A stretch of DNA of 64,000 nucleotides from a virus: IMG/VR virus record IMGVR_UViG_3300009073_000018; one strand, 5' to 3'. Positions 59,442-63,535 of this stretch are shown here, one piece after another; the stretch's first letter is position 1, and each line of letters opens with the position of its first letter. Made by a program: the position numbers and the translations under genes. The notes under the pieces were generated by a model. That model searched no databases. It saw nothing but the letters and a program-made list of their open reading frames with translations, and was not told the DNA's origin.

Positions 59442-59448
59442 CTTTTTC

Positions 59449-60003
59449 TTAATCAATAGATAGAAACCTTTTTTTTCCCATAACCATATCAACTCCTTTT
59501 ATTTTAAGTGTATAAAAAGATGCTGTTTGTTTTACTAGTTTATACTTTTCACCTTTTATTAGTAAATTTTTATAGTTTTCTTTAGCAATTACAAAATTTC
59601 TTTTTTTATTTAAAAGAGCTTGTATTCTACCACTATTATCAGTTCCTTTAAAGAAATACCAGTGCTGATCTCTACCACTATATCCTAATGGTAATTTAAA
59701 AAACTTAAAACATCTTTTACAATTTTTTAGTAATTCCGTTTTAGTATCTTTTCCTAAAGAAATAAAAAAAGCAGGTACTCTTACTTCTTTTGCTATAGCA
59801 TCTATAAAATCATCTATTTCTTTTTGAGTATTAAAATAACTAAGAGTGTTACTTATATTAGTTATTGCAAGTATTTTACAATTATTAATATTATTCTCAT
59901 ATAAATACATTGTAGTTTTTATGCCTTCAGGGCTTTTTGTTACAATTTGTATAGTTGCTCTGCTCGTAATAGGGTTTCTTTTTGTTGTTTCTATTTTATT
60001 CAT
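59449..60003 (-). CDS. Hypothetical protein (intron passenger, between P9 and the 3' splice site)
   Basis: 184-aa ORF; its stop codon is followed by only 7 nt, the last being the terminal G. Confidence 0.7.
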   Translation of the reverse strand: MNKIETTKRNPITSRATIQIVTKSPEGIKTTMYLYENNINNCKILAITNISNTLSYFNTQKEIDDFIDAIAKEVRVPAFFISLGKDTKTELLKNCKRCFKFFKLPLGYSGRDQHWYFFKGTDNSGRIQALLNKKRNFVIAKENYKNLLIKGEKYKLVKQTASFYTLKIKGVDMVMGKKRFLSID

Positions 60004-60083
60004 TGATTCACTATAATTTAATTTATTTATATTTATAGCTTGGACTGTCTCACATTCCTTAACTTAATATTAGGAACTTCGTT

Positions 60084-60707
60084 TCAAATAAAATCTACCT
60101 TATACAACATTGAGTCACAAACATACGGTTTAACAATTTTTAAAAATTTTCTAGTTTCATCAGGATTAAATACTAAAAAAAATGATTGATCTCTATTCTT
60201 TCTTTTAGTAATCCTTAAAGTAGGATTAATACTCCACACCTGTTTAAAATATCTTATTATTATATCATGTTCTTTTTTATTAAATGAATTAGTATGCAAT
60301 GATATATATCCTGATTTACCTCTTTTAGTAAGACTTCCATCATCCATATACCATATTGCCAATCCTTGTTTATTTAAATAATTTAACCATCTTCTTTTTA
60401 TAGTTTTATTATTTTTAGGATATAAACATGCTCTTAATTGATTAAATAAAATGGAATCCCTACAATCAAACCTAATAGATTTAAAAAGTACAGATACATC
60501 ATAAATTTTAGATATTTTAAATCTTAAATCCTTCAATAAATTCATTTTAAATTTCATGTATTCTTTTTGTTTAAAAGAATGTTGAGTACTTAAAAATGAA
60601 TTAGCCCTTTTTTTTCTAAATTTTGTTATACAACTATCTCCTAATGTCATTGCAATAACAATAGACATTTGGTCTTTACTATATATTCCCATATATTTTT
60701 TACTCAT
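60084..60707 (-). CDS. LAGLIDADG homing endonuclease (two-motif, LAGLIDADG_2 type)
   Basis: IAMTLGDSCI and LAIWYMDDGS helices; lies between P7 and P3' of the polA intron. Confidence 0.9.
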   Translation of the reverse strand: MSKKYMGIYSKDQMSIVIAMTLGDSCITKFRKKRANSFLSTQHSFKQKEYMKFKMNLLKDLRFKISKIYDVSVLFKSIRFDCRDSILFNQLRACLYPKNNKTIKRRWLNYLNKQGLAIWYMDDGSLTKRGKSGYISLHTNSFNKKEHDIIIRYFKQVWSINPTLRITKRKNRDQSFFLVFNPDETRKFLKIVKPYVCDSMLYKVDFI

Positions 60708-60723
60708 TGTATATATTTCAATT

Positions 60724-61044
60724 TTACTCAGTCTCTACACCGTTTTCTAAAGACAATAAAATATTTTTATTATAATTGAATTTAATTCTCATAGAATCTG
60801 TTATCCATGAATAGTTTTCTTTAAAAGTTCTACTTAAAGATTCATTTTCATTTTTCAATTTATTTATTAAATATATTTTTTCATCTTTACCAAGTGACGG
60901 CACGGGATTGTCTTTATTTATGAAATCAATAATCTCATTTAGTTTATCTTCAACACTTACCCAAGTTTCATGATTTTTTAAAAAACTTCTTTTGTTAATT
61001 AAAGAATAACTAGTACTTTTATTTATTATTTTTATATTTTTCAT
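60724..61044 (-). CDS. Hypothetical protein reading through the intron P5/Q/P6/R elements
   Basis: 106-aa ORF; DNPVP is encoded by the Q element gacaatcccgtgcc and GVETE by the R element ggtgtagagactga. Confidence 0.5.
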   Translation of the reverse strand: MKNIKIINKSTSYSLINKRSFLKNHETWVSVEDKLNEIIDFINKDNPVPSLGKDEKIYLINKLKNENESLSRTFKENYSWITDSMRIKFNYNKNILLSLENGVETE

Positions 61045-61074
61045 ATTTAAAGGTTTTCCCCGTTAGCTAATTAA

Positions 61075-61605
61075 TTATTTTTTTACAACTAAGTCTAAAT
61101 TTTTCCTCAAATGAAATTGAGAAAATTTATAAGATCTTATAATAGGTAAAGCAGTTCCTGTTAATAGAGCTAAATCACCTTGTCTTAATTTTCTTTCCAT
61201 TCTTTGATAAATAGCATAGTTCATTGAATTAGGAGAGTTCAAATTATCATACACTACTAAATCAGTGTTTGATCTTATCATACCTAACTTATTCAATTTA
61301 TGTAAAACAATAGGACTTAATATCATAGACTCTTTGTATTTTGCATCAAATTGTCCATATATTTCACATCCTAATAAATGAGCTGCATATAGTAATATAC
61401 CACTTTTCATATTTAATCCACACACTAAAGGTTTTTTTTTACCTCTATTTGCTTGAATTACATTTTTTGCAATATATAAATTATATATCTGTTTTTTACT
61501 TATATTATCTGATTTATTATTCTCTGATAATTTAATCATACATGCATTATATATAAAATCACAGTAAATAACTTCTGTCTTATATAAAGAATAGTTACGC
61601 ATCAT
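61075..61605 (-). CDS. Degenerate SAM-dependent methyltransferase-like protein (intron passenger)
   Basis: LVCGLNMKSGILLYAAHLLGCEIYG resembles motif I DPFxGSG…AA.LLG…G; DLVVYD and RKLRQGD occupy the motif IV and VI positions. Confidence 0.5.
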   Translation of the reverse strand: MMRNYSLYKTEVIYCDFIYNACMIKLSENNKSDNISKKQIYNLYIAKNVIQANRGKKKPLVCGLNMKSGILLYAAHLLGCEIYGQFDAKYKESMILSPIVLHKLNKLGMIRSNTDLVVYDNLNSPNSMNYAIYQRMERKLRQGDLALLTGTALPIIRSYKFSQFHLRKNLDLVVKK

Positions 61606-61964
61606 AATAGTACGGCTTTAACTAAATTAGTTAAATACATTTTAGCTCTACTGTTCTTTTCCATTTTTTCTGGATGAAATTGAACTGCCATAGAATTACT
61701 AAAAGGATAATATACTATCTCTGGTTCCACTAAACCTTTCATATCATATTGTACATCATTATTTTTCCAGTATTCTTTTGATAAAGATGTTGAATAACCA
61801 TAAATATCATAATGTTCATGAGATAAGTTATAGGGATACATCATTTGATGATGTGTAGAAGTTACTTTATAAGTAGTATTCTTACTTTTAATTAAGTGAG
61901 AAGTTCTATGATTAGTTACATGTTGTATAAGTTTACCACCGTTCATAACTGTAATAAATTGTGC
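61602..61964 (-). CDS. Class I glutamine amidotransferase / peptidase C26, exon 2
   Basis: AQFITVMNGGKL…STHHQ…AVQFHPE (catalytic His-x-Glu). Confidence 0.88.
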   Translation of the reverse strand, partial: AQFITVMNGGKLIQHVTNHRTSHLIKSKNTTYKVTSTHHQMMYPYNLSHEHYDIYGYSTSLSKEYWKNNDVQYDMKGLVEPEIVYYPFSNSMAVQFHPEKMEKNSRAKMYLTNLVKAVLL

Positions 61965-62786
61965 CATTGTTGTTATCGTAGTTTTTTTAATTACTACTTC
62001 TATATATTTCTATATAGATCAGACTATATCATATTCTTATTTACAAAATTTTCCTGCTCAGATTAGGTATATTTAAATATTTTTAGTATATTCCTTAATG
62101 AATAATATTAAAAAAGAACAAATTAAAGAATTGAATTCCTTAGGGAAAACAGATTCTGAAATAAGTAGATTATTAAATATATCTTCTAGTTCAGTAAATT
62201 ATAACAGAAATGCTATGAATTTACCTACTAATTTTAATCATAGAACCTATACTTCTGAATACGACAGAAAAAAAGGTTATATCATGAGAAATATTAGGCT
62301 TTCTTGTAAAAGAAGAGCTTTGGAATTAGATTTAAATCATACAGATTTTGAATTACCAGATACTTGTCCTATATTAAATATTAAATTAAAATATAAAGGA
62401 GAAGGTTCAGGTAATGATCATAATCATGCTACAGTAGATAGAATAGATAATTCCAAAGGATATATAAAAGGAAATATCATAATCTTATCTAGATTAGCGA
62501 ACTCCATGAAAAATGAAGCTTCTTTTGATGAGTTAATTTTATTTTGTAAAAATATACCAAAATTAATTGATACATATAAGAACCAGGGCGCTCTTGGGAG
62601 TTTTACTGACTGTTTTCCTAATACTTTTATAAGAAAATTTAGTCTCGACTCCTAGTCGTTGCACTTTTAAAAAAATCACTTTTTTCACTTAGCTCAGGAT
62701 TATCTACAACATTACTTGTTTAGATTTTCCCTGAATCCACCCCGTGTTTTTAATTATACGTCACCGTATAACTGGGCTACACATTA
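61965..62786 (-). mobile_element. Group I intron (822 nt, IA2-like) nested in the C26 gene inside the polA intron
   Basis: GGU|UAA 5' site; P1 GGGU/GCCC; P10 UGUGU/GCACA; P2 with GUGA loop; P/Q UUCAGG/CCUGAG; R GUGCAACGACUA; S AUGAUAUAGUCU; P8 UUCUUAU/AUAAGAA; terminal G. Splicing restores GICRG-AQF. Confidence 0.92.
62098..62655 (+). CDS. HNH-type homing endonuclease with N-terminal HTH, antisense within the nested intron
   Basis: CPILNI…TVDRIDNSKGYIKGNIIILSRLAN..K; the only credible + strand gene in the - block. Confidence 0.88.
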   Translation: MNNIKKEQIKELNSLGKTDSEISRLLNISSSSVNYNRNAMNLPTNFNHRTYTSEYDRKKGYIMRNIRLSCKRRALELDLNHTDFELPDTCPILNIKLKYKGEGSGNDHNHATVDRIDNSKGYIKGNIIILSRLANSMKNEASFDELILFCKNIPKLIDTYKNQGALGSFTDCFPNTFIRKFSLDS

Positions 62787-63050
62787 ACCCCTGCAAATAC
62801 CTAGTATAGGTAAACCATGTTCACTAGCTTTTAAATAAGCATCCATTTCTTTTTGATCTCTATCTTCATTACAGTTAGTAAGAAAATGTTTTTTTTCTCC
62901 ATACAAAGTAGGACTAATATCTTCCCCTCCTGTAAATATAACTAGATCTGCACTTTTCATATCTGAAGTTAGAATTACATTATATATATTTATAGCATTT
63001 CTATAGTTATTATTACCTCCTACTATATGTAGTCTAAGTTTTTCTATCAT
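62787..63050 (-). CDS. Class I glutamine amidotransferase / peptidase C26, exon 1
   Basis: FTGGEDISP.LYGE…RD…LPILGICRG (nucleophile elbow), ending at the splice site. Confidence 0.88.
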
Positions 63051-63457
63051 AATAAAATAAATTCTTTTTTAATTAGAGAATTGTTATTACCTTTTTTAGG
63101 ATTCTTATCTTTTATATAATTATATATAGTATTATTCTTAGCTGAATCTGTTATTATTCCTATTTTAAGCTTTTTTTGTAATAAACAGTATTTAGCCATA
63201 GCTACAATCAATACTCTTCTCTTTCTTTTAAGTGTAAATTTATTAAAAATAGATTCATATATATTCCATTCACCTATATCTAATATACCACAACAGTTGT
63301 ATAATGTAGTAAGACAATTTATTTCAAGAATAGGTTTTTCTTCCACTGTAAGAGTAAATTCATTAGATCCAAAATCTAAAAATATATTTTTTTTATAATT
63401 CTCTTTAATACAAGATTTTATTTTATTCTTTATTTTTTGTTTTTCAAATGCGCTCAT
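63047..63457 (-). CDS. Hypothetical protein (first intron passenger)
   Basis: 136 aa with an NCCGILDIG motif; ATG lies 1 nt after the long-range stem. Confidence 0.7.
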   Translation of the reverse strand: MSAFEKQKIKNKIKSCIKENYKKNIFLDFGSNEFTLTVEEKPILEINCLTTLYNCCGILDIGEWNIYESIFNKFTLKRKRRVLIVAMAKYCLLQKKLKIGIITDSAKNNTIYNYIKDKNPKKGNNNSLIKKEFILL

Positions 63458-63535
63458 TATAATTTAATTAACCTTCCTTTCTTAGGAAATTCTGAATTGT
63501 TCAAGCTGCATTACTGCAACAGGGCGCTAGCGTTA

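Follow-up and report, generated by a model that had tools for sequence, protein, structure and literature searches.

The textbook group I intron of phages is a compact ribozyme that carries no more than a single homing endonuclease. It is established that phage polymerase genes can contain group I introns and that introns are dense in crAss-like phages (PMC7886860, PMC3984707, PMC3428280); also known are open reading frames (ORFs) that run into core sequence and fungal mitochondrial introns with several endonuclease genes (PMC3984707, PMC11835236). Here we describe an insert in the family A DNA polymerase gene (polA) of a marine crAss-like phage, IMG/VR virus record IMGVR_UViG_3300009073_000018, of which a stretch of 64,000 nucleotides (the window) was analysed. 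We conclude, with a probability of roughly 0.85, that positions 63535 to 59442 of the minus strand form a single cis-splicing group I intron, IA-like as in SPO1- and Twort-type phages, within motif B of polA. An earlier note on this DNA had proposed one group I intron with its core cut at four places and a second intron nested inside it, a proposal upheld by relatives with an intron at the same codon, by Rfam matches in two related introns and by helix covariation.

Among described systems, the IA2 introns of phage polymerase genes (Bacillus phages SPO1/SP82/Bastille, Staphylococcus Twort-like phages and cyanophage Pf-WMP3; PMC3428280) likewise interrupt a conserved polymerase motif at a U.G site, end in a terminal G, and possess a P1/P10 guide, a homing endonuclease gene and a P2 capped by a GNRA loop. 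They span only 0.3-1.5 kb, however, and have at most a single ORF, for an endonuclease, in one of their loops, whereas the window intron measured 4.1 kb and, at four insertion points, held a nested intron together with seven ORFs, non-endonuclease enzymes among them. Genes for core replication and structural proteins of crAss-like phages are likewise dense in group I introns (Yutin et al. 2021, PMC7886860), which were recognised mainly by LAGLIDADG and other endonuclease domains. In contrast to the present analysis, that study mapped gut phages by protein domains and reported no ribozyme anatomy, no multi-gene cargo and not the marine family described here, and gut relatives such as Kolpuevirus differ from the window in having an uninterrupted polA. 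Fungal mitochondrial introns (rps3 in an rnl intron; five LAGLIDADG genes in the Exserohilum cob intron, PMC11835236) can likewise be several kilobases long, with ORFs in peripheral loops and core, and show that a non-endonuclease gene can ride inside an intron; but these introns belong to organelles and mostly add endonuclease ORFs, whereas the window intron resides in a phage and holds a block of metabolic- and modification-type enzymes together with a conserved ORF through P5-P8. Twintrons of organelles resemble it in that one self-splicing intron lies physically inside another, though the inner intron of the window interrupts a cargo protein gene in a loop rather than the outer ribozyme. 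Finally, split polymerases and NrdA with endonuclease cassettes (Aeromonas phages 25, 44RR and Aeh1; mobE, PMC2790892) also divide an essential replication gene into two coding blocks, but there each half has its own start and no ribozyme is present, whereas exon 2 of the window is startless and a complete group I core flanks the insert. Our literature search returned no description of a phage group I intron with a block of non-endonuclease enzymes, of the clamp-loop cargo site or of the marine family described below. The suggestion in the earlier note that a cargo-bearing layout was undescribed held for the literature searched, but the layout proved not to be unique to the window.

Polymerase exons and predicted splice junction

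The source sample was a marine metagenome, and the polymerase encoded in the window was closest to those of crAss-like phages. Exon 1 (63536..64000 for the part within the window, minus strand) read ...RQIMKALNFA up to its last base, U63536, and then LTLAPCCSNAA before a UGA stop at 63503-63501, the cut falling inside motif B. Exon 2 (58759..59441, minus strand) resumed at 59441, 4.1 kb downstream of the break, beginning (L)AYGGNSV... and continuing through motif C (HDE, in SVHDEIVLE...) to a stop. Against PHROG 17 (DNA polymerase), exon 1 covered profile positions 938-1071 and exon 2 positions 1074-1230; since positions 1071 and 1074 are adjacent, no polymerase residues are missing. Joining U63536 to U59441 gave ttt gcg t/ta gca tat gga (FALAYGG; the slash marks the junction, within a codon) in frame, and removing the 4,094 nt between them, of which G59442 was the last base, restored in silico a single open frame of ~697 codons with Exo, A, B and C motifs. 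The ligated exons are predicted to read ...TTTGCGT/TAGCATATGG..., with a predicted junction peptide of ALNFALAYGGNSV. The interruption after KALNFA, the resumption 4.1 kb downstream and the in-frame junction before which the intron ends in G had all been called in the earlier note, and reading frames and adjacent profile positions agree with it on each.

In the window sequence, no in-frame ATG, GTG or TTG was available to exon 2 between the TAA at 59451-59449 and an ATG at 59235, so the conserved AYGG segment is not translatable on its own; the downstream half thus lacked the start of its own that a split gene would have. The TAA at 59449-59451, which ends a 184-amino-acid (aa) ORF, shares its frame with exon 2 and lies 7 nt upstream of it, which we judged a coincidence. 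Read-through of TAA, of which two stood in frame with polA pieces, was rejected as TAA ends many ORFs and the window encodes no tRNA, and an intein was rejected as the ORFs between the polA halves lie in different frames and strands. Searches of the 64-kb window and of a 20-kb locus of its own contig turned up neither a second polymerase nor a homologue of PolB.

Because the locus comes from a metagenome assembly for which one DNA run was listed, a chimeric join might have placed unrelated genes between the polA halves. The chance of this is close to negligible: two assemblers gave the same sequence, letter for letter and with no mismatch, in an 80,063-bp ENA contig and a 7,050-bp Logan contig, which speaks against the misassembly that the earlier note had named as a risk, and the interleaved layout recurred in contigs from other samples.

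Related polA loci

Comparison of related polA loci, which the earlier note had proposed, yielded an intron-less polA in Kolpuevirus and two loci with an insert at the same position. The latter, L001 and L002, were found by a protein search with exon 2 as two C-terminal polymerase fragments (48% identity). Their polA genes were cut at exactly the codon cut in the window, and all three spliced in silico to FALAYGG. The L001 intron (2.1 kb) contained four ORFs, including counterparts of passengers in the window: a LAGLIDADG ORF and a 97-aa ORF similar to the 106-aa ORF described below. In L001 the P10 guide was GUUA with UGGC, a wobble-compatible change that still pairs, and the exon-1 tail LTLAPCC was kept at the RNA level between window and L001. 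The L002 intron measured 0.8 kb with a contiguous core, and matched the full RF00028 (Intron_gpI) model at 100.6 bits (E 3e-26).

These relatives bear on whether the polymerase might instead consist of two associating polypeptides, as does the split gp43 of some Aeromonas phages, with the ribozyme pieces as relics and the ORFs as mere inserts. A GTG at the start of exon 2 in L001, and the lack of an Rfam match in the window itself, would fit such an arrangement. Yet neither the window nor L002 had an ATG, GTG or TTG before or near AYGG, the cut lay inside a codon within motif B, the exon-1 tail was conserved as RNA, and the core blocks were of family-consensus quality with covarying helices; we therefore consider two polypeptides very unlikely.

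L002 possessed a second polA insert after ADYSSQ (motif A) at 7430-8965, with three ORFs and a partial RF00028 match (31 bits) at 8322-8427. In Leptolyngbya phage Lbo-JY46 (PP438436.1, 36976-39939; L025), polA was split in motif B (..AGFA/..NYGG) by a LAGLIDADG-containing insert that is recorded as separate genes and is probably an intron at the same hot spot, unannotated as such. Megablast of the locus against INPHARED phages returned no match, nor did scans of IMG/VR with exon-2 peptide patterns and a 23-mer from P1-P2.

Ribozyme anatomy

All elements of the ribozyme lie on the minus strand and are given here from the 5' end. P1 (63524..63539) paired exon GCGU (63539-63536) with GCGC (63527-63524), so that the U of the 5' splice site formed a U.G wobble (GCGU/UA with UAGCGC), and P10 paired GCUA (63531-63528) with UAGC of exon 2 (59441-59438), the whole guide reading GCUA/GCGC. 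The P2 hairpin (63505..63520; GUUGCA-GUAA-UGCAGC) stood just 5' of the UGA that ends the exon 1 frame. The 5' strand of P3, UUCA(GA) at 63491..63496, was placed by alignment to the Rfam-assigned P3 of L002, and its 3' strand, (UU)UGAA at 60083..60088, includes the LAGLIDADG stop codon; the resulting helix, UUCA 63496-63493 with UGAA 60086-60083, can be extended to 6 bp and recurs as the same pair in L018. The register of P3 in the window is nevertheless uncertain, as its 3' strand was located by a search within 32 nt with GAA 60079-60077 as an alternative. A P3.1 hairpin followed (63474..63488; UUCCU-AAGAA-AGGAA), and then the 5' strand of what we term the clamp, GGUUAAUUAA (63464..63473), which pairs with UUAAUUAGCU at 61074-61065.

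The 3' strand of the clamp was followed by UAA and the 5' strand of P4, in which ACGGGG (61063-61058, then AAAA) pairs with CCCGU (60906-60902), as assigned through the Rfam alignment of a related intron, L008. P5 joined 61053-61042 with 60922-60912, the latter followed by ACAAU (conserved blocks 61042..61074 and 60891..60922). P6 comprised GCC (60901-60899) and GGU (60741-60739), the latter lying in a segment (60729..60741) with J6/7 (GUAGA) and the 5' strand of P7, where GACUG (60733-60729) pairs with CAGUC (60047-60043). The segment 60009..60077 held P8 (GUUCCU 60077-60072 with AGGAAU 60059-60054), J8/7, P7' and an AU-rich P9 (~60040-60009). The intron closed with the decamer UAAGAAAAAG (59442..59451), ending in G59442, which was similar to UAACAAAAUG in L001, UAACACAACG in L008 and UAACAAAGUG in L014. 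P1, P2, P3.1, P8 and P9 were also present in the minimum free energy fold of the single sequence.

The earlier note had placed P1/P10, P2, P4, P7, P7' and P9 as found here; its P3 was about 5 nt off. That P3 (63486-63491 with 60075-60080) was discarded, as L001 cannot form it and the P3 of the related introns lies 5 nt upstream.

A family of marine phage introns

A 22-nt motif shared by the window (60912-60891; P5', J5/4, P4' and P6) and L001 occurred exactly in 18 IMG/VR contigs. The contigs fetched with it also shared three blocks in fixed order: UAACGGGGAAAC.CUUUAA (P4/P5), AACGGUGUAGAGACUA (P6'/J6-7/P7) and AGGUUGAUGAGAUAGUCCGAACUAUA (P8'/J8-7/P7'/P9). Helices of 5 bp alone are at chance level in AT-rich DNA, and support for the anatomy comes instead from profiles of these blocks, which were built without the window and without L001. 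Each matched the 64-kb window a single time, on the minus strand and in the correct order: B1 at 61075-61046 (E 9.3e-8), B3 at 60749-60728 (E 1.8e-5) and B4 at 60053-60024 (E 1.5e-5). An nhmmer search of the window with the single L002 core found no match. Even with its 5' module left out, L008, the most compact member, matched RF00028 at 44.1 bits (E 2.7e-10), and that alignment names the helices. Over 41-49 nt, the P7'-P9 block shared 86-88% identity with introns from phages of Staphylococcus and Bacillus, including one annotated as Intron_gpI.

At least a dozen related introns in other marine viral contigs held one to three ORFs in the same loops, and some members had ORFs in L5, where the 5' strand of P4 lay 640-1,060 nt upstream of P4', or after P9. 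Judging from these contigs, the dispersed layout is a habit of the whole marine-phage intron family. The window intron was the longest member seen, at about twice the length of the others.

In L008 (10146-11190), and also in L017, the family intron interrupted a helicase gene at motif VI (QR/IGRVVR) and had a 275-aa ORF in the clamp loop; L017 differed from L008 in an L8 enlarged by 160 nt of coding sequence. A cultured crAss-like phage, Cellulophaga phage phi14:2 (L024, record 13343-16364; L023), contained the P4-P9 part of the family core between g025 and g029 (DnaB). Genes g026, g027 and g028, annotated only as hypothetical proteins, lay inside or beside this copy; a search for a 5' module and exon junctions there found none.

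Covariation and the clamp helix

P7 and P7' were complementary in all 20 members compared, with three types of pair (GACUA/UAGUC, GACUG/CAGUC as in the window, and GGCCA/UGGUC). The 5' module was located in twelve members. Every one of these could form a 4-bp P3, in six sequence combinations; leaving aside the window and L001, the remaining ten paired the four bases that precede GAAU with four at a fixed position after P7. P1 varied across the family as GCGU/GCGC, GGGU/GCCC and CCGU/GCGG, and P2 was compensated in L001 (GUUGUC/GGCAGC) and in L002 and L008 (UGUAUG/CAUACA). Counterparts of P3.1 read CCUA-GAAA-UAGG, CCCA-GAAA-UGGG and UCUA-GAAA-UAGA, and P5 showed a compensatory change in L003.

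All 12 of these members had a clamp of 7-15 bp between P3 and P4, in which L009, L011, L012, L016 and L018 showed compensatory changes. The clamp loop measured 4 nt in L004, 299-1,208 nt of ORFs in other members and 2,389 nt in the window. As the clamp of L004 is a plain hairpin with a 4-nt loop, the cargo block of the window occupies the terminal loop of what is truly a peripheral hairpin.

The same helix could be read differently. Some organelles are known to have group I introns that splice in trans, and by analogy the window might be served by two transcripts, one with exon 1, P1-P3 and the 5' strand of the clamp and a separate one with the 3' strand of the clamp, P4-P9 and exon 2, the cargo being expressed independently; a clamp of 10 bp that flanks 2.4 kb of genes could pair between molecules. 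We give this little chance of being right: the pieces are collinear on one strand, no terminator-like site was found on the minus strand inside the intron, promoter-like matches were no commoner than in shuffled sequence, and the ordinary hairpin of L004 marks the clamp as a cis element by origin.

An open frame also runs through the core itself. In the window the 106-aa ORF (60724..61044, minus strand) was threaded through P5, L5, P5', P4', P6, L6, P6' and P7, and across the family its frame (..KDNPVPSL..NGVET(N/D)..) was open from a start within L5 to a stop at P7 or P8' in 17 of 19 distinct members. The threaded ORF of the family ran through P5', P4', P6, P7 and often P3' and P8, while its loop parts were variable and often rich in cysteine. 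Since the frame stays open despite unrelated loop sequences and a GC content of ~22%, the 106-aa ORF probably encodes a real product, which may be a maturase or act as a switch between translation and splicing.

Evidence against a functional intron

Several observations weigh against the window insert being a functional group I intron. No Rfam group I match was obtained with the whole window, with 58500-64000 or with a 1.1-kb slice (59990-61090), a silence that we attribute to inserts splitting the core and not to absence of a ribozyme. Single-sequence folds were no better than those of shuffled sequence (z -1.1 for the 5' module, +0.2 for P8-P9). P3 of the window offers only 4-6 AU-rich pairs within a search space of 32 nt and is not significant alone, and P6 is 3 bp closing a 147-nt loop. 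The gene of ~650 nt between P7 and P3' occupies an unusual insertion place, the P9.1 and P9.2 hairpins of L001 and L014 are absent, and the 3' splice site lies 560 nt past P9. The anatomy, moreover, was read from DNA sequence, with a single DNA run behind the window. Lastly, polA offered no canonical start codon (ATG, GTG or TTG) ahead of its Exo I motif (..GADTETTGLD..; L021:4275-4600), which casts some doubt on how, or whether, polA is expressed; an ATT or ATA start, another intron or something else are possible explanations. L021 is the phage's own contig just past the end of the window, where the polA frame becomes open directly behind the in-frame TAA that ends a 141-aa ORF, and the first canonical start (MMKHD) would remove the Exo I motif.

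The intron might instead be dead and its polA allele a pseudogene undergoing decay, in a genome that is defective or was crippled recently, as the lack of a canonical start and of P9.1/P9.2 and a length about twice that of any other member might suggest. Decay is hard to reconcile, however, with exons that are intact across ~697 codons and retain every catalytic motif, with the open state of the cargo ORFs and of the two homing-endonuclease ORFs, with conservation of every core block, and with the lack of a second polymerase in the parts of the contig searched. We regard it as highly improbable and retain a cis-splicing intron as the best account of the locus.

Cargo genes and the nested intron

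Between the polA exons lay ~3.7 kb of protein-coding inserts: an antisense HNH ORF and six same-strand ORFs, the latter where the earlier note had placed them. They interrupted the core at four places, namely the clamp loop, the expanded L5 and L6, the P7-P3' joiner and the stretch from P9 to the 3' end. The clamp loop began with a 136-aa ORF (63047..63457, minus strand), possibly of GNAT-like fold, a lead only. It was followed by a C26/class I glutamine amidotransferase gene in two pieces (62787..63050, ending ...GICRG, and 61602..61964, AQFITVMNGG...FHPE..., both minus strand) separated by the nested intron. Downstream, a 176-aa ORF (61075..61605, minus strand) without a Pfam match resembled class I S-adenosylmethionine methyltransferases in feature comparisons (score 0.90-0.91) and structure (TM 0.67-0.71), and may be methyltransferase-like.

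Beyond the threaded 106-aa ORF, a gene for a LAGLIDADG homing endonuclease (or maturase) occupied 60084..60707 (minus strand), between the 5' strand of P7 and the 3' strand of P3. It matched LAGLIDADG_2 (PF03161) at 117.4 bits against a curated cutoff of 25 (E 8e-34), and its product was 67% identical to the counterpart at the same place in L001. A 184-aa ORF of unassigned function (59449..60003, minus strand) separated P9 from the 3'-terminal decamer. A small DUF6501-like (SH3-like) module recurred in the window (59449-59600) and in three relatives (L010:3821-4444; L001:7952-8584; L002:7507-7779), at the ends of otherwise unrelated intron ORFs and in different loops, which suggests a shared nucleic-acid-binding part of intron-borne proteins. 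Pfam and PHROG searches with ten cargo ORFs from relatives gave no annotation.

Joined, the amidotransferase pieces contained the nucleophile elbow G-x-C-x-G (GICRG/AQ) and the His/Glu pair (FHPE), and matched PHROG 7218 at positions 4-88 and 90-194. The predicted product of nested splicing, GICRG/AQFITVMNGG, agreed with uninterrupted homologues (38-41% identity), which are free-standing genes in L008, L017 and L011; the cut lies at the nucleophile elbow. The nested intron (61965..62786, minus strand; 822 nt) had its 5' site at U62787/U62786 and G61965 as its last base, and showed P1 (GGGU/GCCC), P2 with a GUGA loop, P4-P6, P7 (GACUA with UAGUC), P9 with a GAAA loop, the 3' tail of the family and a P7'-P9 block like that of the L002 polA intron. 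A family block profile matched it weakly at 62031-62001. The HNH endonuclease gene (62098..62655, plus strand) lay antisense in its P8 loop. As the inner intron interrupts the amidotransferase ORF in the 2,389-nt clamp loop, outside the outer helices, and not the outer ribozyme, the arrangement is not a classical twintron.

Proposed splicing pathway

In the pathway that we propose, the whole 4.1 kb would be transcribed, and ribosomes that had translated exon 1 would stop at the UGA immediately 3' of P2. Long-range helices would bring the core together: P5, P6, the clamp with 10 bp across 2.4 kb, P3 bridging 3.4 kb and P7 bridging 0.7 kb. Guanosine would attack after U63536, and the 3'-OH of exon 1 would in turn attack after G59442, giving a continuous polymerase of ~697 aa that reads ...NFALAYGG.... 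Since the inner intron lies outside the outer ribozyme, the outer intron could splice before the inner one is removed; the order of the two events is left free by this scheme, and the LAGLIDADG protein might assist as a maturase. Group I homology, helix covariation, in-frame restoration of the exons and a startless exon 2 are features of the locus itself, and splicing would be their expected consequence.

A possible but doubtful extension is that the family constitutes a gene-carrying platform, in which phage genes accumulate and turn over in the clamp, L5, L6/L8, the P7-P3' joiner and the region after P9. The ORF through P5-P8 would then make translation and folding exclusive, and the cargo would gate polymerase synthesis. 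The earlier note had supposed that polymerase output could be tied to translation of the passengers, and that the excised, possibly circular intron may serve as a polycistronic mRNA; both ideas are conjectural.

Significance

If the locus is read correctly, the ribozyme plan of group I introns tolerates 3.7 kb of coding inserts, including enzymes that are free-standing in related phages, plus a second intron, and ribozyme assembly is possible, in a translation-coupled setting of bacterial type, from pieces that lie kilobases apart. Standard covariance-model scans would miss such introns, and essential genes that look "split" in viral metagenomes probably represent introns that have gone under-recognised. 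The core copy in phi14:2, a cultured phage, makes experiments possible. For the phages themselves, the finding would mean that introns can serve as vehicles or shelters for non-selfish genes.

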